Shown here piece by piece: positions 13,741-29,702 of a stretch of DNA of 34,852 nucleotides; the first letter of the stretch is position 1, and each line of letters begins with the position of its first letter. Origin of the DNA: a virus. The stretch covers positions 1 to 34,852 of the IMG/VR virus record IMGVR_UViG_3300026985_000012; one strand, written 5' to 3'. Under the pieces are notes generated by a model. That model searched no databases and was not told the DNA's origin. It worked only from the letters and a program-made list of their open reading frames with translations. Made by a program: the position numbers and the translations under genes.

Positions 13741-13856
13741 TGTACTGCGGGTTCTCGCCCGCACAGTTCGATGAGTTCAGCTGGCGCGACGTGGAGATCC
13801 TCATGACTGCCTTCCCCTACCTCCAGCATCCGCCTGTCGAGGTGACCGATGACTGA
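13650..13856 (+). other. -1 ribosomal frameshift site G-GGA-AAC and gpGT-like extension
   Basis: X-XXY-YYZ heptamer at 13650-13656 in the chaperone frame; the -1 frame is open to TGA 13854-13856, overlapping the TMP start. Confidence 0.8.
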
Positions 13857-15078
13857 GTTCGAGACCCAGAACACCGTCGACGTCGTCGTCGACGATCGGT
13901 CGCTCACCGAAGCCAAGGCCGACGTCGAGGACGCGCTCTCCTCGGTGCCGCTCGACGTCCAGGCGTCGGTGTCTGGCGGCGGAGGGGGCAGTGAGGTCGC
14001 CGCCCGCGATCGCGCTCGCCAGCGGCAGCTGCTCACGACACAGACCGACTCGATCGACGAGCTCCGTGAGGAGTTCGCGGAGAACGACGTCGAGGGCGAG
14101 TGGCAAGAGCAGCACGCGCTCTCCCGCGAGCGGAATCGGTTGCTCCAGCAGATCGCCGAGAGCATCGACGAGGGGAACTTCGACCGGGCGTCACGCTCCG
14201 GTGGCTCGCTCGGGATGATCATGGGCGGTGGCGCCCTGCTCGGCGTCGGTGCGCTGTCGGGCGTGCTCTCGAGCTTCTCGTGGCCGTCGCTGCCGAAGTT
14301 CGACGCTCCCGACTGGCTGCCGCCGGAGATCGAGAAACCTGGCTGGATACCGATAGGGATCGAAGAGCCATCCGAAGCACCGGTCGAAGATCCGGCGGAG
14401 GCGCCGGTCGCGGATCCAAAGGAGGCTCCTGTTGAAGAGCCAGAAAAGGCAGAGGTCGAGAATCCTCCAAAGGCAGAAGCCGAGAAGCCACCAGACGCAG
14501 AGGTCGCAGAACCAGACTTTAAAGTTCAGGTCGAAGAGCCAGAGGCATCTGGCGAGTCGGCTAGTGAGAGCACCGGGCCGAGTGCGCTGAAAACGATCTT
14601 TGGGCTATCAGCTCTCGGTGCGGGTGGCGCAGGAGCTTACGTACTCCGGAATGCCGGCTCTACAGCAGCAAGAGGGGCTTCCGGCGCTGGCGCGTTCCTC
14701 ACACCCGAGATGACCGGTGCGACCAATCAGGACCAGTTCAACCAGCGACGTCGATCCTTCAACAAGCAAACGCCGGACTGGCTGCAGCTCCCGGAGATGG
14801 AAGGCGAGAATAAATATCCGGGATCGGTGTTCACTGCCGAGGGGAGACAGGCGCAGGTCGAGGGTGTCCGCGAGCTCGTGAGTGCGATCAACGACTTTCG
14901 CGAAGATATTCGCAGCACCCAGGAGGACACGTCTTCGACCCGCAGCACCAACGTCAACGTCGAGAGCAACGTCACGGTCGACGGCGCGACACGGCGTGAG
15001 GTTGAGCGAGCTGCTGAGAGTGCGAAGCAAGAGGCGCTCCGCGATTTCGAGAGGAAGATTAGGAGTCGCCGGCCGTGA
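13849..15078 (+). CDS. Tape measure protein (short, 409 aa)
   Basis: Position after chaperone; coiled-coil N-region, two hydrophobic Gly-rich segments, helical C-end. Confidence 0.7.
   Translation: MTEFETQNTVDVVVDDRSLTEAKADVEDALSSVPLDVQASVSGGGGGSEVAARDRARQRQLLTTQTDSIDELREEFAENDVEGEWQEQHALSRERNRLLQQIAESIDEGNFDRASRSGGSLGMIMGGGALLGVGALSGVLSSFSWPSLPKFDAPDWLPPEIEKPGWIPIGIEEPSEAPVEDPAEAPVADPKEAPVEEPEKAEVENPPKAEAEKPPDAEVAEPDFKVQVEEPEASGESASESTGPSALKTIFGLSALGAGGAGAYVLRNAGSTAARGASGAGAFLTPEMTGATNQDQFNQRRRSFNKQTPDWLQLPEMEGENKYPGSVFTAEGRQAQVEGVRELVSAINDFREDIRSTQEDTSSTRSTNVNVESNVTVDGATRREVERAAESAKQEALRDFERKIRSRRP
14362..14544 (+). repeat. Degenerate 8-aa (24-nt) Pro/Glu repeats within TMP
   Basis: EEPSEAPV/EDPAEAPV/ADPKEAPV/EEPEKAEV/ENPPKAEA/EKPPDAEV/AEPDFKVQV/EEPE; A-rich codons. 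Confidence 0.8.
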
Positions 15079-15256
15079 CGCTGATGGACAGTTTCACGCG
15101 GAGACGCCACAGGTACACCGTGAGTATCAAAATAAACACCGAGGCAATCCCCAACGTGGCGTCTCCTCGGGTGTAGGCGATTGCTGCTGAGGAAGCGAAC
15201 CCCGTTAGTGCAAACAGCTCAACAACCCACTCTCGGGGGTCGTAACCGATGCTCAT
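15059..15256 (-). CDS. Antisense small membrane protein (moron-like); alternative start 15316
   Basis: MSIGYDPREWVVELFALTGFASSAAIAYTRGDATLGIASVFILILTVYLWRLR, two TM helices; fills the 247-nt gap between tail genes. Confidence 0.65.
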   Translation of the reverse strand: MSIGYDPREWVVELFALTGFASSAAIAYTRGDATLGIASVFILILTVYLWRLRVKLSISVTAGDS

Positions 15257-15325
15257 AGGGTCGATGTCGACGGCCGCGAGTAAAGAGGTTCGGGCAAACG
15301 ACGAGCGCGATTCCATTCATACCAC

Positions 15326-15991
15326 ATGACTGACCTACCACCAGCTGACCGCATCGCCACCATTGAGATCGAGGGCGATCCCGACGGTGACGGGCGTCGC
15401 ACTGCCACCTTCCAGCTCTACACTGGCGGCGAGCAGGGGCTGAGCATCAACGAGGAGCAACGCACGGAGGTGCGCGCCACGCCCGGCTCGGCGGCGCTCG
15501 CACTCATCGACGGGACGATCGGCGATTTCGTCGACGCGCCCATCAACAAGGACCTGTTCATCAACTTGGGCAGCTCGCAGTTCGCAGTTACGATCGACTT
15601 CAACAGCTGGGAGGGCGCGACCGGCCCCGAGGGCAACCCACTGCAGTGGGGCGATACGGGCGACCCTGATACGTTCACGAAGAGCGACGCCACGGGCGAG
15701 CACCCGACGCGACAGATAGCCTGCTTCTTCTGGTGGCTGCGCAACACGCGCGTCTCCTCGGTGAGTGGCGAGCTCTTCCCCGGCGCCGGGATCGCCGGCG
15801 ACGGCCCGGCAACACTCAGCTACGGCCAGTACCGCGAGGGCGGCGTGTACGACCCGCTCCAGGTCGTCTTTGAATCACCCGGCGCCGACTTCCCTGGTGA
15901 GTCGATGAGCACGTTCACCGGACAGATCACCTGCATCGAGGCGATCGACGCGGGCGACCCGATCGACGCCGTCGCGAGGACGACCAAATGA
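15326..15991 (+). CDS. Minor tail protein (distal-tail position)
   Basis: First + strand gene after TMP; halophilic composition. Confidence 0.65.
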   Translation: MTDLPPADRIATIEIEGDPDGDGRRTATFQLYTGGEQGLSINEEQRTEVRATPGSAALALIDGTIGDFVDAPINKDLFINLGSSQFAVTIDFNSWEGATGPEGNPLQWGDTGDPDTFTKSDATGEHPTRQIACFFWWLRNTRVSSVSGELFPGAGIAGDGPATLSYGQYREGGVYDPLQVVFESPGADFPGESMSTFTGQITCIEAIDAGDPIDAVARTTK

Positions 15992-17175
15992 CCCGACGCT
16001 ACTACCGCTCGGAGATCTCGGAGAGCAGCATCGCCAGCAATCGCCTCGACGCGTCCCGCGCCCAGCTCTCCCGGCAGGGTGTGCTCAACGGGAGCGGCCG
16101 CGTGGAGCGGGTATCGGGCGAGGCCGCGGACATCCGTCTCGACGTCGACTACCGCGGGAAGTTTGCGGAGCGGATGGCCCGCGAGCTGCGGGAGATCCTC
16201 TCGTCGAACGACATCGAGGCGGCGCCCTTTGCAGCCGTCGAGGCGTCGCAACCGTCCGACTCGTACTACACCGCGGAACTCGTCGACGACGAACCGGCGA
16301 TGCCGCAGGCGGCCGGCGCGGTCAGCGTGGGCGCCAACCTGACCGAACAGGGGACGCGCAAGGAGCAGACGATTACCGTCGACACCTCGCCGAGCCAGCC
16401 CTCACCAGGCCACCCGTTCGGTAACGACACCACCGGGTACATCGGCATCCCCGCGGATGCCCGGCGCGTCCGCATCGTCGACTCCACCTCGCAACCCACC
16501 CAACGCTCGCGACCGACGCCGGTCGCGACCGTCGACGCCGAACACGGCGCTATCGACCTGTACGATGCGACCGCGGAGTCGATCGACGAGCCGACCTACC
16601 TGTACGACCTCGCCTACGAGCTCCAGGGCGACGTCGATCCGGGGGTGTGGGACACGTACGGTCATGGCTCGATCCGCGACGCGGACGGCGTCGTCGCGTG
16701 GGGGCGCGTGTTTGCGACGAGTCACGACTTCGGCGCCGACGCGATCGTCCTCGAGAACGGTCTGCTCCGGATCACGATCGACGAGCCGACGAACGCCGAC
16801 GCCACGGCTCTCCTCGAGGCCGAGACCTACGACGCCGGCGCCGACGCCTGGACCACGATCAACCTGCCCAGCTATGACGCCGACTTGGACACGGACTGGC
16901 AGCCGGCGGACGTCGACCTGACGCATATCGGGCAGGCCTCGGTCCGAGCGCAGGTCGAGTTCGAGGCGGTCGCCGGCACCAACCAGGGCGACATCGCGAC
17001 GGTCGACGTCGAGCTCGAGCGCGGCCAATCCGACCTCGAAGTGTGGATCCCGAGGAGCGTGACTGGCGAGCTCCCGCCCGACCTGGAGGCGTTGCTCACC
17101 CCGATCGCGTCGACGAGCATCGTGGACAGTGGCGTCGAGCAGGGGCTCGTCGCTCGCGAGGAGGTGCGTCTGTAG
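15988..17175 (+). CDS. Minor tail protein
   Basis: ATGA overlap; 395 aa beta-rich acidic protein in the tail-tip module. Confidence 0.65.
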   Translation: MTRRYYRSEISESSIASNRLDASRAQLSRQGVLNGSGRVERVSGEAADIRLDVDYRGKFAERMARELREILSSNDIEAAPFAAVEASQPSDSYYTAELVDDEPAMPQAAGAVSVGANLTEQGTRKEQTITVDTSPSQPSPGHPFGNDTTGYIGIPADARRVRIVDSTSQPTQRSRPTPVATVDAEHGAIDLYDATAESIDEPTYLYDLAYELQGDVDPGVWDTYGHGSIRDADGVVAWGRVFATSHDFGADAIVLENGLLRITIDEPTNADATALLEAETYDAGADAWTTINLPSYDADLDTDWQPADVDLTHIGQASVRAQVEFEAVAGTNQGDIATVDVELERGQSDLEVWIPRSVTGELPPDLEALLTPIASTSIVDSGVEQGLVAREEVRL

Positions 17176-18729
17176 ATGCCGACCGAGACGATCACTGCGG
17201 ACACGGACTGGACCGTCCCGGACGGCGTCTTTGCGGTGACCCTGACGCTCGAGGGCGAGCGCGGTGGGTCTGACGACTTTAGCGGGACCGATTACGGCGG
17301 ACCGGGCGGGCGCGTTGTTGGCGAGCTCGAAGTCCGTCCGGGCGAGGTGCTCTACATCCGGGAGACGCCCGGCGGGACCGGTGCTGCGGACGGTGGCGAC
17401 GCGATCGACGTGCGGACCAGCGGCACGTCGCTCGAGGACCGCATCGCCATTGCCGCTGGCGGCGGCGCCGGCGGCGAGGGCTCACAGACCGGGACTGCGT
17501 TCGGTGGCGCCGGCGGCCCGGCGACCGGCGCTGACGGCGAGAACGGCTCGTCGGGTGGGACGCCGCCGACTGGCGGGACACAGTCATCCGGCGGAGCGGG
17601 GTCAGGCGATGGGTCGAACGGGTCGTTCGGCGCCGGCGGCGACGCTGGAACTAACGACTCCAACGCGGGCCACGGCGGCGGTGCCGGGTTGTTCGGCGGT
17701 GGTGGCGGCGAGTCGTCCGGCGTGTTCGGTGGCGTCGGCGACTCGGGCGCCGGCGGGTCGAACTACGTCGACGGGCTCGACAGCGTCATCACGAACGAGC
17801 GGGGGACCTCTGGTCGCGATCACACCGACGGCGGGCTCGTCACGATCGAGTACGAACCAGTCGCACCCGAGAACCTGACACGCTCGGAGACCACCGCTAC
17901 GAGCACCACGGTCACGTGGGATCCACCGACGCTCCCACCGGAGGTCGACTCGCTCGATCTGTACCGCGTCTATCGCGATCTCGGTGCTGGGTCTGTGCGT
18001 ACTGACTACGCCGAGGTCGCCACGCGTGACCCGGGACAGACGACCTACGACGATGTGGGGTTGCTCAACGGGCGGACGTATCACTACCGCGTCGGCGCCG
18101 ATCTCACGGCCCCCGAACTCGACGAGCGGGACAAGCCGACTGCGATACCCGACAGCGGAGTAGAGGACTTCGAGAGCGGGACCCTCGACCCCCAGTGGGT
18201 CGACACATCCTACCTATCCGCTACGACGACACGGCCGTGGAACGGGAGTTATAGCGGCGAATCTGACACTGGCGGATCGACGATCTCCGCACCACTGTAC
18301 GATTGGCAGTTCGGTGGTGGAAATGCTTACCAGTTGGCCTCGTTCTCGATGTTCTACTGGGAACAATCCAGCGGAAATGGGGGCGAAGGCTGGCGATTCG
18401 TCGACGAGAACAACACAATCGCGCTTGGGGTTGCATCAAACAACCCCCAACTTGTTGTTGAGGACAACAACGGGAACGAACAGGTAGCTGATCCATCTTG
18501 GCTTGATACAGAGATGTGGATCAAAGTCGACGTGTCGTTCGATTGGGGTGCCGGAACGTTCGATGTGACATGGACCGACGCGGAAACACAATCAAACTCC
18601 TATGTTGAGAGTGGCCGCCCACTGATTAGCACGTCGCCAGTCGACACGCTGCGCGGGCAGACCTACAACGGCGGTTGGGGTGCGGGACCGACTGTCCACT
18701 GGATCGACGATTTAGAGGTCACAATTTGA
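17176..18729 (+). CDS. Tail adhesin: glycine-rich domain + FN3 + lectin-like C-terminal domain
   Basis: GGPGGRVVGELEVRPGEVLYI and GGxGG runs; FN3 (APENL..TVTWDPP..YRVYR..YDDVGLLNGRTYHYRV) 17863-18108; Trp-rich, more A/T-rich C-terminal part. Confidence 0.8.
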   Translation: MPTETITADTDWTVPDGVFAVTLTLEGERGGSDDFSGTDYGGPGGRVVGELEVRPGEVLYIRETPGGTGAADGGDAIDVRTSGTSLEDRIAIAAGGGAGGEGSQTGTAFGGAGGPATGADGENGSSGGTPPTGGTQSSGGAGSGDGSNGSFGAGGDAGTNDSNAGHGGGAGLFGGGGGESSGVFGGVGDSGAGGSNYVDGLDSVITNERGTSGRDHTDGGLVTIEYEPVAPENLTRSETTATSTTVTWDPPTLPPEVDSLDLYRVYRDLGAGSVRTDYAEVATRDPGQTTYDDVGLLNGRTYHYRVGADLTAPELDERDKPTAIPDSGVEDFESGTLDPQWVDTSYLSATTTRPWNGSYSGESDTGGSTISAPLYDWQFGGGNAYQLASFSMFYWEQSSGNGGEGWRFVDENNTIALGVASNNPQLVVEDNNGNEQVADPSWLDTEMWIKVDVSFDWGAGTFDVTWTDAETQSNSYVESGRPLISTSPVDTLRGQTYNGGWGAGPTVHWIDDLEVTI

Positions 18730-18775
18730 GCGACTCGGTGTCCGGGTATATCCCACCAGATAGCAAACACTAACA

Positions 18776-21700
18776 ATGCCAACCTACCAAAGCGACCTCT
18801 CGACCGAGGTACAGGCGACGACGATCCTGCCGGAGCCGTCGACACCCACTGTCTCGGGCGTCGACGCCGACAGCGCAGCCTACGCGTGGGGCGCCTCCCA
18901 CACGAACGGCGAGACGCGCGTCGATTTCCGTGCGGACGGGGCGAGTGGCTGGACCACCGCGGAGGTCGTCGCCAACGACACCGAGCAGGCGACCCTGTCG
19001 AGCCTCCTCAATGGGCAGCTGTACGATGCCCGCGTCGTCGCGCAGACCTCGGACGCGGAGTCGGCCTCGCCGGTCGCGACGTTCCAGACACTGCTCCCGG
19101 ACGAGCCTCTGCAGCAACTTGACAACGGCGTCCTCGACGAGATCACGGTTGCCCGCGACCCGGCCACCAACAACGGGATCGTCCGCTACCAGATCCGCGA
19201 GGAGGGGTCGTCGACGTGGGACTCGTCGGCCGCGGGGTTCGGCGAGCAGACGGCCGCATTCGACGCCGATGTCATCTTCACGGGGCTCCTCGACGGTGAG
19301 CGCTACGAGGTCCGCGGGCGGACCGAGACGGACTACGTCACCGGGACATGGACCGACCCACTGTCGATCCAGACGCGGTTTCCGGGCTCGGACAACCTCG
19401 ACGTCACTGGCACCACGACGACGAGCGTCACGCTGGGGTGGGACGAGAACGCCGACAACGAGGCCGGTCAACTGGTCATCCGGGAGCGCCGCCTCTCGGA
19501 CGGATCGTGGGGGCGCGAGCGTGAGATCATCGACGCCGGCGTCAACACGGAGACGTACACGGACGACACGGTCCAGCCCGATCGGGAGTACCGCTATCGG
19601 ATCCGGTCGTTTACTGAGCACGCCGAGGCTGAAAGCAACACGACCACGGCGACGACGCCGGCGCTCGGAGATGTCCGCGGCCGGCGCGTGCCGACCACAG
19701 GGCCGTACGTCGAGGTCGAGACGCCCGACCGCGCAGCGCCACTGACGCCGACGATCACGGGGATCGACTGGTCGCCCGATGTCAACACGCGCCCGACGAT
19801 CGAGGTGACGGTGCCGCAGTCCGACCGCTGGGACGCACTCACAGGCGAGCGCATGTGGGTGTGGCTCGACGGCACGCAGCTCCCGATCGACACGCTAGAG
19901 GGAACGCGCAAGACCGAGGGGAGCGGTGGCGCCGCGACGGTCCTGGAGGCGAGTGGCGCCGCGCAGCTCGACGAGTACACTGACGATATCCAGATCGACG
20001 CGCGGGAGAACCATCTCGCCGCCGAGGACCTCATCGCGGAGTACACCGACTACGTCGCCAACGTCGACGACCCGGCGACCGACACACGCTCGGACGTGCT
20101 GATGCTCCAGGAGTCCGGCGCCGCGCTTGAGGAGCTTCTCGTCGACGCGATCGGGGCGACAGACCCGCTCGGAGTCCGCCAGAGCGACGGCATCCGACGG
20201 CTCCAGACCGGGTGGTTCGTCGAGGCTGAGGATACAGAGACCACGCTCGGGTCGTATCTCGCGGAGAACTACGGCGACGCCGGGGCGTGGTCTGGCGGGC
20301 AGGCCCTCCGACTCAACAGCGCCGGCGACGAGTTCGAGGTCTCGTTCGACCTCGATCACGAGGTCCCGCAGAGCGAGCTCGTGTTCGACCTGCTCGAGGC
20401 CGTCGAGGGTGAGTCGCCTGCGTTCGACATCGCGTTCGACGGCAACGTCGTCGAGTCGATTCCGGAGGGTGGGATCGGGAGCGACGCGGACCAGTTCGAC
20501 CTCTCGTGGGGGCCGGGGTTCACGCTCAACGCCAACGGCGCCGTCTCGCCCGGCTCACACTCGGTGACGGTGACGGTGACGCTGAACGACAACAATGCCG
20601 AGCCGACCGGCGACATGTGGGTCGATGCGACGCACGTCCGCGACGATCGCGACTCGTTCACCTTCGACGACACGCCCTCGAACGGCGTCGTCGACGGCCC
20701 CGAGCAGTTCCCGGGCACCATCACCGTCGTGTTCGATGACGTCGGCAGCGTCGAGCAGGTGATCGCCGGCGAGTTCTCCGTCGAGATGTCTAACACCGAC
20801 GGCGATCAGGCAATCGCCATCTCCAACGACGAGGGAAGCACCTGGATCGAGGCGACCAACAGTGAGACGGTCTCCGGGAGCTTCGCGAGCGCGACCCAGC
20901 AGATCCGCGCCCGGGTGACGCTCTCAGGGTACGCGTCTGACCCGTCGCGATCGCCGGCGCAGGCGGACAGCGGCCAGTCCGTCGACAACATCGAGCTGCT
21001 CGCCGACCTCGAGGACACGCCCGTCCTCCTCGACAAGCAGTACCGGGACCGGATCGCGGCCGTCCTCGCGGACATCGCCGAGAACGGGCGCATGGTGTGG
21101 GAGGCGCGCCGCGATCCGGGTGCCGACCCGCACGACCCGACCGGCATCATCATCGAGTGGACGCAGATCGGCCAGCGGTCGCGGGCGTCGGCGGCGCCGG
21201 CGACCAGCCTCGAGACGCGCACCACCATCGAGGACGCCTACGAGCGCGTCGTCGTCTTCGGGAAGAGCAAGGGTGTCCAGGGCGTCACGTGGAGCCAGGG
21301 CGCGAACAGCTCGCTGACCGGGCTCGGGAACGCGTGGATCGTCCCCGACTCCGAGCGCATCTACGACCCCGACACGGACGAGGAGTTCGTGCGCGGCGAC
21401 GACTACCGGATGCGGTGGGACGTCGGCGGGATCGAGATCCTCGACAGCGGGTCGATGAGTACGGGGACGACGTACGCCGCCGACTACGACTACCGCTACC
21501 GGGGCGAGGCAACGACGCCATCCGTTGAGGCGAGCGAGGCGCGCACGGTCGAGCGGCAGATCCCGGGCGCGACCTCCGACCGCGAGTGCGAGCAGCTGGC
21601 GCTGTCCGTGTTGAAGGACGTCCAGGACGAACAGGTGGAGGCGACGCTCACGCTCGTCGAGCCGGCGCCGGACGTGCCGCTCGTCGAGGCGATCTCGCAT

Positions 21701-21850
21701 CCCCGGCTCCCGGAGGGCGCCCAGGAGATCCGCGGGGTGGAGCGGTCCGCGACGTCCGAGCGGACCTACCGACTGGCCAACCGGCGGACGGCCGGGGAGA
21801 TCGTCGACGACCTCCGCGAGGACTACGAGTCGCTGGCCGACGTGGTCTGA
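18776..21850 (+). CDS. Large tail-tip protein with three FN3 repeats and a carbohydrate-binding-like module
   Basis: FN3 signatures LNGQLYDARV, LDGERYEVRG, PDREYRYRIRS; EAED...WSGG..L.L jelly-roll-like segment; C-terminal YERVVVFGK hub-like region. Confidence 0.8.
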   Translation: MPTYQSDLSTEVQATTILPEPSTPTVSGVDADSAAYAWGASHTNGETRVDFRADGASGWTTAEVVANDTEQATLSSLLNGQLYDARVVAQTSDAESASPVATFQTLLPDEPLQQLDNGVLDEITVARDPATNNGIVRYQIREEGSSTWDSSAAGFGEQTAAFDADVIFTGLLDGERYEVRGRTETDYVTGTWTDPLSIQTRFPGSDNLDVTGTTTTSVTLGWDENADNEAGQLVIRERRLSDGSWGREREIIDAGVNTETYTDDTVQPDREYRYRIRSFTEHAEAESNTTTATTPALGDVRGRRVPTTGPYVEVETPDRAAPLTPTITGIDWSPDVNTRPTIEVTVPQSDRWDALTGERMWVWLDGTQLPIDTLEGTRKTEGSGGAATVLEASGAAQLDEYTDDIQIDARENHLAAEDLIAEYTDYVANVDDPATDTRSDVLMLQESGAALEELLVDAIGATDPLGVRQSDGIRRLQTGWFVEAEDTETTLGSYLAENYGDAGAWSGGQALRLNSAGDEFEVSFDLDHEVPQSELVFDLLEAVEGESPAFDIAFDGNVVESIPEGGIGSDADQFDLSWGPGFTLNANGAVSPGSHSVTVTVTLNDNNAEPTGDMWVDATHVRDDRDSFTFDDTPSNGVVDGPEQFPGTITVVFDDVGSVEQVIAGEFSVEMSNTDGDQAIAISNDEGSTWIEATNSETVSGSFASATQQIRARVTLSGYASDPSRSPAQADSGQSVDNIELLADLEDTPVLLDKQYRDRIAAVLADIAENGRMVWEARRDPGADPHDPTGIIIEWTQIGQRSRASAAPATSLETRTTIEDAYERVVVFGKSKGVQGVTWSQGANSSLTGLGNAWIVPDSERIYDPDTDEEFVRGDDYRMRWDVGGIEILDSGSMSTGTTYAADYDYRYRGEATTPSVEASEARTVERQIPGATSDRECEQLALSVLKDVQDEQVEATLTLVEPAPDVPLVEAISHPRLPEGAQEIRGVERSATSERTYRLANRRTAGEIVDDLREDYESLADVV

Positions 21851-27846: not shown

Positions 27847-28119
27847 ATGTCGACACAGCGTCACGCCCCACCGGAGCCTCCGTCGGCGACGATCGACGCC
27901 GACGAGGTCGTCACGATCGACCGCACCCAGACGCCCGACCGGTGGCGCTACACCTGCCCCTACGGGCACACCGACTGGGATCGCACGAACTGTCACGCGT
28001 GGTGTCCGGCTTGCCGCCAACTGAACGAGTCCGGGCTCGACGTCGACCCCGAGCACTACCGGATCCTGGATAAGAAACGCGAGGTGATGATCCCGTGGGA
28101 GCAGCTGGAGCTGGAGTGA
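27847..28119 (+). CDS. Zinc-finger protein
   Basis: YTCPYGH..W....HAWCPAC. Confidence 0.8.
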   Translation: MSTQRHAPPEPPSATIDADEVVTIDRTQTPDRWRYTCPYGHTDWDRTNCHAWCPACRQLNESGLDVDPEHYRILDKKREVMIPWEQLELE

Positions 28120-28244
28120 CCCCGGAAGTGAGGCCCCGGTTTATGTCTCCCGCGCCGGCAGGCGAGTGTGTGGTCTCGACGACTACCCCCTCCGAAATAC
28201 ACCCCCTGCTTATCGGGAGTGCGAGCAACAGGCAAACCGGGATG

Positions 28245-28541
28245 TCAGGAATCAGTCGGCTCGAGCTCGGCGGCGTCGAGTTCCTCGTCGAGGTAGGCGC
28301 GGCCGTCGTCAGTGAGGCGATAGAGTCCTTCGACATCGGCGACGCGTTCAGTCAGGCCGTAGCGCGCAAGCGCAGACATCCGCATACTAGCGTGGCTTGC
28401 CGTACACACGCCGAGGTTCTCGATCGCCTGTGGTGTAAGATTCCCCTCGTCGCGGAGGTGTTCCATAATACGCCCGTCTACTGGGCGCATCCAGTCTGCG
28501 CGCTGTCTAACCACGCCCCGATTTGCGGTAGTAGTGCTCAT
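28245..28541 (-). CDS. phiH1 repressor-like winged-HTH protein, repressor B
   Basis: RQRADWMRPVDGRIMEHLRDEGNLTP...RMSALARYGLTERV..GLYRLTDDGRAYLDEELDA is the family pattern. Confidence 0.88.
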   Translation of the reverse strand: MSTTTANRGVVRQRADWMRPVDGRIMEHLRDEGNLTPQAIENLGVCTASHASMRMSALARYGLTERVADVEGLYRLTDDGRAYLDEELDAAELEPTDS

Positions 28542-28744
28542 GAGACTATCGATATAGTGAATTACGGTGGTGCTACCTATAATATTGATGGTAATACACA
28601 GACTAGTGTTAGTAGTACCTTAACAAGTTATTTGTAGGAGGGGCCGCAAGTACCAGTTGACCTGGCCTTCGCGGGAAAACCCGCCGGCGCTGCAACGCCG
28701 ACGGCCGGTCACCCTAGCAAAACCCTCGTGACGAGGGTTTTCAG
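28542..28744. promoter_or_regulatory. Divergent promoter/operator region B
   Basis: A/T-rich; shares AATTAC, TGGTGCTAC, CACAG and TGTTAGTAG in the same order with region A. Confidence 0.75.
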
Positions 28745-29296
28745 ATGACCATGAGTACGTTAGACAACCGGGGTCAAAAATCCGGCCCCAACGATGAGCG
28801 GACCGAATCCAAGTACGTCCGTCGAGAGATGAGCTCGTCCGCAGTCCCGTATATGCGGACTGAAGTCAACAACTACGGCCACGTCGTGTGGCGCCAGAAG
28901 ACATCGAATCAGGAGAATATTTCTGTTCCTGTCCACCGGCTACTACTCGTCGCTGAATACGGCGTTGATGCCGTCGTCGGGAAACACGTCCACCACAAGA
29001 ACGAGATTCCATTCGACAACCGTATCGAGAATTTAGAGCTACTCGATCCCGAGGAGCACAGCCGACACCACAGCGAAGGATCCGACATCAGCGATGTTGA
29101 GCTCCTCGCCGATTTGCGAGCTGGTGCTGCTGTTCTCGACCGGCGTCCGAAGAAGTGTGACGTCAACAACTGGGGGAGCTACCACAGTTCGACTTACTAT
29201 AGACGGTTCGACGGCGACTGGGATGAGATCTGCTCACTGGCAGGTATCGACGAGGGCGGAAACATCGACGGCGACTGGTGGAGGGAGCAGGAATGA
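28745..29296 (+). CDS. HNH endonuclease with C-terminal homing-endonuclease-associated repeat
   Basis: VHRLLL...HVHHKNEIPFDNRIENLELL...EH..HH; C-terminal ELLADL....L.R.P......WGSYHSSTYYRRF..W...C..AG. Confidence 0.85.
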   Translation: MTMSTLDNRGQKSGPNDERTESKYVRREMSSSAVPYMRTEVNNYGHVVWRQKTSNQENISVPVHRLLLVAEYGVDAVVGKHVHHKNEIPFDNRIENLELLDPEEHSRHHSEGSDISDVELLADLRAGAAVLDRRPKKCDVNNWGSYHSSTYYRRFDGDWDEICSLAGIDEGGNIDGDWWREQE

Positions 29297-29463
29297 GCGA
29301 CTCAGGTACGAGGTCTGCTCATGACCCCAACGACGGCAGTACCGACACCGAGTACGAACAGCGACAGTATCAGTTCGGCGGCGACTACGTCATCAGCTCC
29401 AGCGCCGCGGCAGGCGCATGGGTAAGCGCGACGTATCCCACCGACCTCATGGAGGCTCGGTGA
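29293..29463 (+). CDS. Hypothetical protein (56 aa)
   Basis: ATGA overlap; ends AWVSATYPTDLMEAR. Confidence 0.65.
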   Translation: MSDSGTRSAHDPNDGSTDTEYEQRQYQFGGDYVISSSAAAGAWVSATYPTDLMEAR

Positions 29464-29702
29464 TGACCGTCGACGACAACCTTGTCGAGGTGGTCGAGCA
29501 GCTGCCCGACGCTGACCCTGAGAGTATCGTCCAAGCGGACGACGGGCACGGTCACTTCGTCTTCAACGCTGACGCCGACGAGCAGGATGTCGATCAGATC
29601 GACGAGGTGCTTGAAGCGGCCGGCTACGAGCGCAACGGACACCTCTCGGTTCCCGGGATGGACCAGCAGAACTTCACGCCGATCGAGGAGGATGAGGAGT
29701 GA
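29463..29702 (+). CDS. Hypothetical acidic protein
   Basis: TGATG overlaps at both ends. Confidence 0.7.
   Translation: MTVDDNLVEVVEQLPDADPESIVQADDGHGHFVFNADADEQDVDQIDEVLEAAGYERNGHLSVPGMDQQNFTPIEEDEE

Follow-up and report, generated by a model that had tools for sequence, protein, structure and literature searches.

During donor-strand exchange in chaperone-usher pili, an immunoglobulin (Ig)-type sandwich that lacks its C-terminal strand G is completed by the N-terminal extension of the next protein, which fills the groove beside strand F in antiparallel orientation. In phage tail fibres and spikes, the modular exchange of C-terminal receptor-binding domains is textbook biology. Here we describe two adjacent tail genes of a provirus that we take, with moderate confidence, to form a docking socket, i.e., a donor-strand-like joint on the N-terminal arm of a baseplate hub that carries exchangeable adhesin modules. 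The genes lie in the IMG/VR record IMGVR_UViG_3300026985_000012, whose whole stretch of 34,852 nucleotides was analysed (hereafter, the window), at positions 17176-18729 (encoding gp517) and 18776-21850 (encoding gp1024). They are separated by 46 nt and read in different frames (offset +1), and the border between them runs through a fibronectin type III (FN3) domain.

Joints of related design have been described for other proteins. In the myomesin:obscurin-like-1 complex, an incomplete Ig fold is completed in trans by a strand of a second polypeptide, which yields a mechanically stable joint (PMC5222588). In the HFTV1 virion, the tail fibres attach to the N-terminus of the hub gp44 (PMC12494034; PDB 9h4p) through hydrogen bonds and Mg2+ coordination, with no split domain and no FN3 arm reported (PMC12494034). 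Glycine-rich tail adhesins are known from hafunaviruses and from T-even phages (gp38); a tail-tip domain of this kind has been implicated in the host range of haloarchaeal viruses, and in archaeal myoviruses glycine-rich adhesins are described as the determinants of host range (PMC8651126). A literature search for donor-strand, strand-complementation or split-FN3 joints in the tails of phages or archaeal viruses found no direct precedent, which is weak evidence of absence, and neither a split FN3 nor a donor-strand joint is mentioned in the publications on Humcor1, HFTV1 or the taxonomy of archaeal tailed viruses.

An FN3 domain divided between gp517 and gp1024

The two genes and the interval between them comprise the following parts, each given with the evidence on which it is based:

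17176..17850, + strand: glycine-rich domain, gp517 residues 1-225 (resembles the ALK/LTK TNF-like/Gly-rich, TG, domain)
17863..18108, + strand: FN3 strands A to F, without strand G, gp517 residues 230-311 (Pfam, AlphaFold2, PDB chains, hhalign)
18109..18157, + strand: linker ending in AIPDS, gp517 residues 312-327, left homology arm (DNA identity with contig L005)
18158..18735, + strand: exchangeable low-GC block, in which a concanavalin A (ConA)-like domain of lectin/glucanase fold (residues 328-517) is followed by the stop (18727-18729) and some 6 nt more (comparison with L005, GC, fold)
18736..18775, + strand: conserved intergenic element with a TATA-like box at 18747-18752, right homology arm (kept in loci L005, L006, L007 and L008)
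18776..18826, + strand: orphan FN3 strand G, the proposed donor strand, gp1024 residues 1-17 (conservation, fused homologues, two-chain model)
18827..19675, + strand: three complete FN3-like domains forming the N-terminal arm, gp1024 residues 18-300 (Pfam fn3 and Pur_ac_phosph_N matches, alignment)
19676..21850, + strand: baseplate-hub core, gp1024 residues 301-1024 (PHROG 18315, match to the HFTV1 hub)

We hold this gene anatomy, together with the module exchange described below, with very high confidence. In gp517, the glycine-rich domain is followed by an FN3 domain without strand G, the AIPDS linker and a ConA-like C-domain of 190 residues. Pfam fn3 (PF00041) matches residues 230-308 with 26.4 bits (gathering cut-off, 25), and the match spans only profile positions 2-68 of 84; likewise, the FN3 chains of the PDB align to gp517 no further than residues 304-310, leaving their own last 16-25 residues unmatched. 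In the AlphaFold2 (AF2) model, six strands are predicted with confidence, namely A (residues 232-237), B (243-249), C (259-268), C' (279-284), E (290-294) and F (302-311); there is no strand G, and the predicted local distance difference test score (pLDDT) falls below 50 from residue 316. A single-chain FN3 has seven strands (A, B, C, C', E, F and G), of which gp517 contains A to F only. When the profile of gp517-type proteins was compared by hhalign with the fused protein of locus L021, a clean gap of 18 residues appeared at the FG loop and strand G, and the gp517 residues past strand F aligned with the next inter-domain linker of the L021 protein. With its C-terminal strand missing and a groove beside strand F, the gp517 FN3 has the features of an acceptor in donor-strand systems.

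The counterpart of the missing strand is located at the start of gp1024. Residues 9-1021 of gp1024 align unbroken to residues 411-1434 of the fused L021 protein, and from residue 9 on gp1024 also aligns unbroken to internal sequence of the L024 protein; thus, its N-terminal peptide corresponds to strand G of the preceding FN3. In the protein P0013, strand F, loop, strand G and linker are continuous, and this strand G is nearly identical to the N-terminal peptide of gp1024. Within the N-terminal region of the hub the peptide is the most conserved part, with a mean pairwise identity of 0.73 versus 0.44-0.62 elsewhere, and the orphan strand retains a canonical strand-G sequence across proteins that are only 49-58% identical. 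The Pfam fn3 score of gp1024 is 37.1 bits. PHROG 18315 matches residues 102-1022 (E 3.1e-210), and within this stretch residues 434-746 are similar in sequence to the solved HFTV1 hub structure 9h4p (E 6.5e-15). Given this homology, and given that synteny places its gene behind those for the tape measure and the connector, gp1024 is identified as a siphovirus baseplate hub of the HFTV1 gp44 type. An earlier reading of this DNA (the original prediction) had placed the end of the first FN3 after strand F, its strand G at the opening of the next gene and three further FN3 domains downstream; the profile, PDB and AF2 boundaries bear out the first point, the L021 alignment and the P0013 strand the second, and the Pfam matches and alignment the third.

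How the two halves could meet was modelled with gp517 residues 225-335 and gp1024 residues 1-105, using our own alignments of 11 and 6 rows. Three two-chain runs reached values of 0.80, 0.78 and 0.79 in the interface score ipSAE, with a contact agreement of at least 93% and a partner pLDDT of at least 91, and three controls gave 0.00-0.01. In calibration, 58 of 80 solved complexes and 2 of 110 mismatched pairs attained this mark, which is only a rough guide here since our own alignments were used. The modelled interface sets gp1024 residues 1-19 against strand F (296-313) and strand A (228-244) of gp517, and the contact pairs 302:15, 304:12 and 306:9 correspond to the antiparallel F-G register of a normal FN3. 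Although gp517 residues 312-335 were included in the model, they were not used for closing the FN3, and the closure by its own downstream residues that would have spoken against the original prediction was not seen. Completion in trans, as that prediction had proposed, is what the model predicts (0.79, with 0.01 for the best control), and the model supports, rather than demonstrates, an FN3 closed by the gp1024 N-terminus.

Gene borders and module exchange among relatives

About 40 loci were gathered by a profile scan of IMG/VR and from contigs carrying homologues. A single-protein IMG/VR scan with gp517 gave no match, tblastn against the phage collection yielded only a partial Humcor1 match, to the lectin domain, and a search for longer (fused) proteins returned only unrelated giant glycine-rich proteins; the fused forms discussed below came from the profile scan. 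In one group of loci, termed Class B (L005, L006, L007, L008, L010 and L012), the gene border falls between strands F and G as in the window, and gene 2 opens with the same conserved peptide. What lies between the two halves differs. L010 has the border without any cassette, with 3-5 residues after strand F, a stop and a 1-nt spacer, so that its domain cannot be completed in cis. The interval of L012 codes for an Ig-like domain; in L006 and L008 such a domain is joined by a lectin or LamG-like one, and L007 combines a short tail with a separate gene of 301 aa. Thus, in the two-gene relatives the C-domain is not always homologous to that of gp517, as it would have been had the original prediction been wrong on this point, and the content of the interval ranges from none at all through a short tail and one or two additional domains to entire genes.

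In a second group, Class A, gene 1 stops in the FG loop of the next FN3, a few residues past its strand F, where the acidic tail of its product is conserved; gene 2 opens with MP, six strand-G residues and an LPDE linker. At least 13 members were found (BJ1, Humcor1, L011/L014, L013, L016, L019, L020, L023, L029, L031, L033, L040-42 and L043). Their borders hold no cassette or insert; the spacer is 0-2 nt, and the two genes are in-frame, overlap by 1 nt or are offset by +2. L026 and L028 have a gene 2 start of the Class A type with extra genes in between. The gp1024 protein of the window is continuous across the Class A junction, and Class A proteins are in turn continuous across that of the window. 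Natural fusions are also found: L021 encodes a single chain of 1437 aa that joins the FN3-array part of PHROG 33719 to PHROG 18315, and the single open reading frames (ORFs) of L024, L025 and L030 begin with ConA-like modules, L024 having the lectin family of the window in cis with the hub. Judged from these sequences, gene borders within FN3 domains are a trait of the family and not a by-product of the cassette in the window.

Several of these loci show further peculiarities. In L014, L019, L020 and L031 (L031:5340-5400), the stop of gene 1 is immediately followed by an in-frame ATG of gene 2, and a single read-through at this junction would restore an intact FN3 and a fused protein. In Humcor1 gp100 (L001:3170-6727), two ConA/LamG-like domains are apparently nested in the last FN3, between its first strands and strands E-F; one of them is homologous to the cassette of the window, and the host FN3 is itself cut after strand F by a gene border. 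In L022 (L022:4640-4760), gene 1 (LamG-like plus Ig-like) ends in an apparent FN3 strand A and overlaps by ATGA with a hub-type gene 2 that starts at strand B, and the hexamer GACATC flanks the junction left and right. What is seen here may be a further, third type of FN3-internal gene border, placed between strands A and B, or else a frameshift of the assembly.

The cassette of the window is the Trp-rich C-domain of gp517. Modelled alone by AF2 with 37 relatives, it forms a ConA-like lectin/glucanase sandwich (pLDDT 94.3; predicted TM-score, pTM, 0.89), which agrees with the lectin-like domain expected by the original prediction. Legume lectins and galectins are its top Foldseek matches, and PL-14/PL-20 lyases match as well (E of about 1e-6 to 1e-5; query TM-score, TMq, 0.5-0.62); it matched no Pfam family and nothing in a PDB sequence search. 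The domain family is widespread and unnamed, with 195 representatives (E up to 0.001) in which it takes N-terminal, internal, C-terminal and stand-alone positions. Three proteins of 2700-4600 aa (P0029, P0053 and P0061) carry three to five copies each of a ConA-like domain of the cassette type; thus, this family is not limited to viruses or tail proteins. The domain may bind sugars and affect host range.

The exchange of this domain can be read from the metagenomic contig L005, whose identity with the window is 88% on the left side, as far as 18157, and 96.8% on the right, starting at 18733. Between these points the roughly 575 nt of the window are replaced by an unrelated block of 442 nt (GC 0.526). 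The breakpoints are sharp, one at 18157/18158, directly after the AIPDS codons, and one at about 18733-18736, some 6 nt beyond the stop. Both sequences share the intergenic element and the beginning of gene 2, which lie outside the exchanged block. The composition of the block is also foreign to its surroundings: 18157-18729 has a GC content of 0.560 and, at third codon positions (GC3), of 0.639, with flanks at 0.704 and 0.689 (GC3 0.81-0.91), and only 1.55% of equal-sized windows of the 34.9-kb record are as GC-poor. The A/T-rich insert of the original prediction is therefore real in its composition, but its extent of about 670 nt (18109-18775) gives way to the L005 breakpoints. AIPDS-type motifs also precede unrelated C-domains in P0003, P0007, P0011, P0012 and gene 2 of L007, i.e., at least four unrelated distal domains. 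On the other side, the intergenic element is kept in five Class B loci, and its TATA-like box is centred about 26 nt (24-29 nt) upstream of the gp1024 ATG; given haloarchaeal promoter geometry, the element may be a promoter that gives the hub gene its own leaderless transcript.

Repeats, whether direct, inverted or terminal, are absent from the flanks of the exchanged block, as is a target-site duplication, and the L005 cassette has no copy in the window. An invertase- or shufflon-type switch was rejected on the lack of flanking inverted repeats and of a second cassette in the window, where a recombinase gene was not searched for this purpose. The lectin-module swap is an ordinary homologous-recombination exchange of a distal binding module, not a transposition and not an invertible switch. 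In this respect the original prediction, which had a receptor-binding cassette exchangeable without an invertase, holds for a compositionally foreign lectin-like module.

A larger role for the cassette was part of the same prediction. According to this scenario, an ancestral protein of about 1330-1440 aa (glycine-rich domain, FN3 array and hub) was cut once by a foreign cassette that comprised linker, lectin domain, stop, spacer and start, entered the FG loop, made both genes and switched host range. It overlaps with the docking-socket reading except for the order of events, and we consider it rather unlikely. Its premise has substance, since fused or unbroken relatives exist (L021, L024, L025, L030 and, across the junction, P0013), the base composition of the block is foreign, what follows strand F looks like a linker between domains, as though taken from another Ig/FN3-array gene, and from a fused ancestor one event would suffice for each split class. 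The creation of two genes by the cassette is what these loci do not support. The recombining block, which in L005 ends about 6 nt past the stop, leaves out the spacer and the start of gene 2; L010 is split without a cassette, whole genes occupy the interval in L007, L026 and L028, and at least 13 relatives have split the next FN3 in its FG loop with a 0-2 nt spacer and no insert. The L-T-x-P motif that had been noted at both junctions is a coincidence: its second copy is non-coding, an in-frame TAG precedes it by four codons, and L006-L008 have not kept it. As no repeat flanks the block either, the motif was rejected both as a junction signature and as a target-site duplication. Finally, junction states are scattered over the hub-core tree, in which the window and L005 are nested among Class A loci; the N-terminal module thus moves by recombination, and the order of events, from fused to split or from split to fused, is not readable from the hub tree.

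Proposed strand donation, its consequences and the surrounding locus

That the divided FN3 serves as a docking joint has to be weighed against a neutral relic, in which gp517 binds the tail elsewhere, its FN3 either has no more than six strands or has its own linker or lectin domain as a cover in cis, and the gp1024 peptide is a flexible leftover. Neutral fission would be best tolerated at linkers, whereas both independent borders, and possibly the third in L022, lie inside an FN3. Likewise, the orphan strand would hardly be expected to keep its canonical sequence at the divergence given above, and in L010 and in Class A proteins the stretch past strand F is too short for closing the sandwich. 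The two-chain result bears on this choice from two sides: the controls scored 0.00-0.01, but AF-type models are biased toward completing known folds. The relic is further favoured by the small number of independent split events, just two or three, and by the linker and C-domain that the full-length model did not resolve. On balance we regard it as improbable, clearly more so than the one-step insertion.

Several points nevertheless weigh against strand donation. The ipSAE values may reflect a memory of the intact FN3 fold, as the halves of split domains tend to pass, and the supplied alignments of 11 and 6 rows were shallow. Borders within FN3 domains may go back to just two or three ancestral events spread by recombination, in which case their recurrence is weaker evidence than the number of loci suggests. 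The conservation of the orphan strand is just moderately above that of its neighbours (0.73 vs 0.44-0.62). As the full-length AF2 model of gp517, built on a shallow alignment, left residues 316-517 unresolved, the lectin domain could in principle contact the open FN3 edge in cis. Strand donation is, moreover, a prediction.

A third alternative, in which frameshifting or stop-codon read-through makes the FN3 whole so that the split is only apparent, would suit the stop and in-frame ATG of L014, L019, L020 and L031 but is extremely improbable, since the window genes lie 46 nt apart at offset +1 with an extra in-frame TAG (18761-18763) and a whole lectin domain between them, and since no single recoding rule fits Class A spacings that are in-frame, overlapping by 1 nt or at +2; programmed recoding was rejected for the window and fits its relatives inconsistently.

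In the docking-socket reading, the baseplate hub gp1024 would be a trimer, with a string of FN3 domains as the N-terminal arm of each subunit, and gp517 would be an accessory adhesin with two candidate binding modules, the N-terminal glycine-rich domain and the C-terminal ConA-like lectin. The first 17 residues of each hub subunit would insert antiparallel to strand F of gp517 and complete its FN3 sandwich. In analogy with HFTV1, such strand donation would fix one adhesin per hub arm. Socket and plug, formed by FN3 strands A to F and by strand G, respectively, belong to separate polypeptides, so that anything can be encoded between them, which the varied content of this interval in relatives illustrates. 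The lectin domain is replaced by homologous recombination, with the AIPDS linker and the intergenic element as arms, and binding specificity would change across the population of viruses by module replacement rather than by a switch inside the genome.

Whether split FN3 domains represent a general plug-and-socket system of haloarchaeal siphoviruses, in which the hub peptide donates strand G and gene 1 of L022 may donate strand A, is in our estimate about evenly balanced. If they do, the FG loop would be a safe harbour in which adhesin domains or whole genes can be inserted, lost and exchanged with assembly undisturbed, and the joint would be the first of donor-strand type to be described for virus tails, as well as a tag-and-catcher pair made by nature from a split FN3. 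Real strand donation would explain how a constant hub can carry freely changing attachments, and it would provide a rule for reading hypervariable tail-tip genes, namely an FN3 ending after strand F and a next gene starting with strand G. This viral case would then join a small set of assemblies with trans-completed Ig folds and offer protein engineering a compact natural split-FN3 pair, probably adapted to high salt. If strand donation is not real, the locus would still document cleanly, with its breakpoints mapped, how receptor-binding modules are exchanged between archaeal viruses.

The other candidate binding module of gp517, its glycine-rich domain, matches the N-terminal part of PHROG 33719 (E 1.4e-31) and, weakly and under the cut-off, PF12810 (E 0.0063). 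Its AF2 model has pLDDT values mostly of 83-96, with five 10-residue blocks at 69-78, and the TG domains of human LTK and ALK are its top Foldseek matches among solved structures. The gene pair is preceded by one further tail gene:

15988..17175, + strand: 395-aa protein, 5' of the gp517/gp1024 pair (synteny and sequence similarity)

This protein is conserved with BJ1 ORF65, Humcor1 gp095 and HRTV-DL1 ORF22, and its position is where a distal-tail or baseplate-tail connector would be expected. The record itself is a 34.9-kb IMG/VR provirus with an estimated completeness of 82%, whose nearest named relatives are the Halorubrum siphoviruses BJ1 and Humcor1 (Graaviviridae) and HRTV-DL1; in the best explanation, a Graaviviridae-like haloarchaeal siphovirus is present here in proviral form, and the window contains its tail-tip module. 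In scans with 573-nt windows, two more blocks with a GC content below 0.60 were seen, at 14411-15463 and 28021-29583 of the window, the former covering the 3' part of the ORF at 13849-15078 and the region beyond it.

Comparison with known joints and adhesins

The arrangement shares its working principle with chaperone-usher pili, in that the gp517 domain lacks strand G and is predicted to be filled by the N-terminus of gp1024. It differs in that the fold is an FN3 in a virus tail, that the pair is heterotypic and terminal and forms no polymer, and that the socket protein continues into a further domain after strand F; here, moreover, the joint is a prediction. Membership of the chaperone-usher family is not claimed, and neither a chaperone nor an usher is evident, none having been searched for. 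The myomesin:obscurin-like-1 complex, of which chain 5fm5 is among the structure matches, is a pair of eukaryotic muscle proteins with non-adjacent genes and no gene border running through one domain; here too, membership is not claimed.

In comparison with HFTV1, the core of gp1024 is homologous to the hub gp44, with the E-value given above, and the fibres attached to the N-terminus of gp44 in the solved virion provide a structural precedent for the attachment proposed for gp517. The attached proteins appear to be of different kinds: HFTV1 gp42 is a trimeric beta-helix fibre with an architecture unlike that of gp517. With the hafunavirus adhesins, gp517 would share a glycine-rich domain at the tail tip; in gp517 this domain resembles the ALK/LTK TG fold. 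As in the module exchange of tail fibres and spikes, a conserved N-terminal anchor, sharp junctions, unrelated distal domains in near-identical backbones and a foreign composition are found at this locus. What sets it apart is that the exchanged unit sits within a split FN3, between its two parts, with a linker motif and an intergenic element as its limits.

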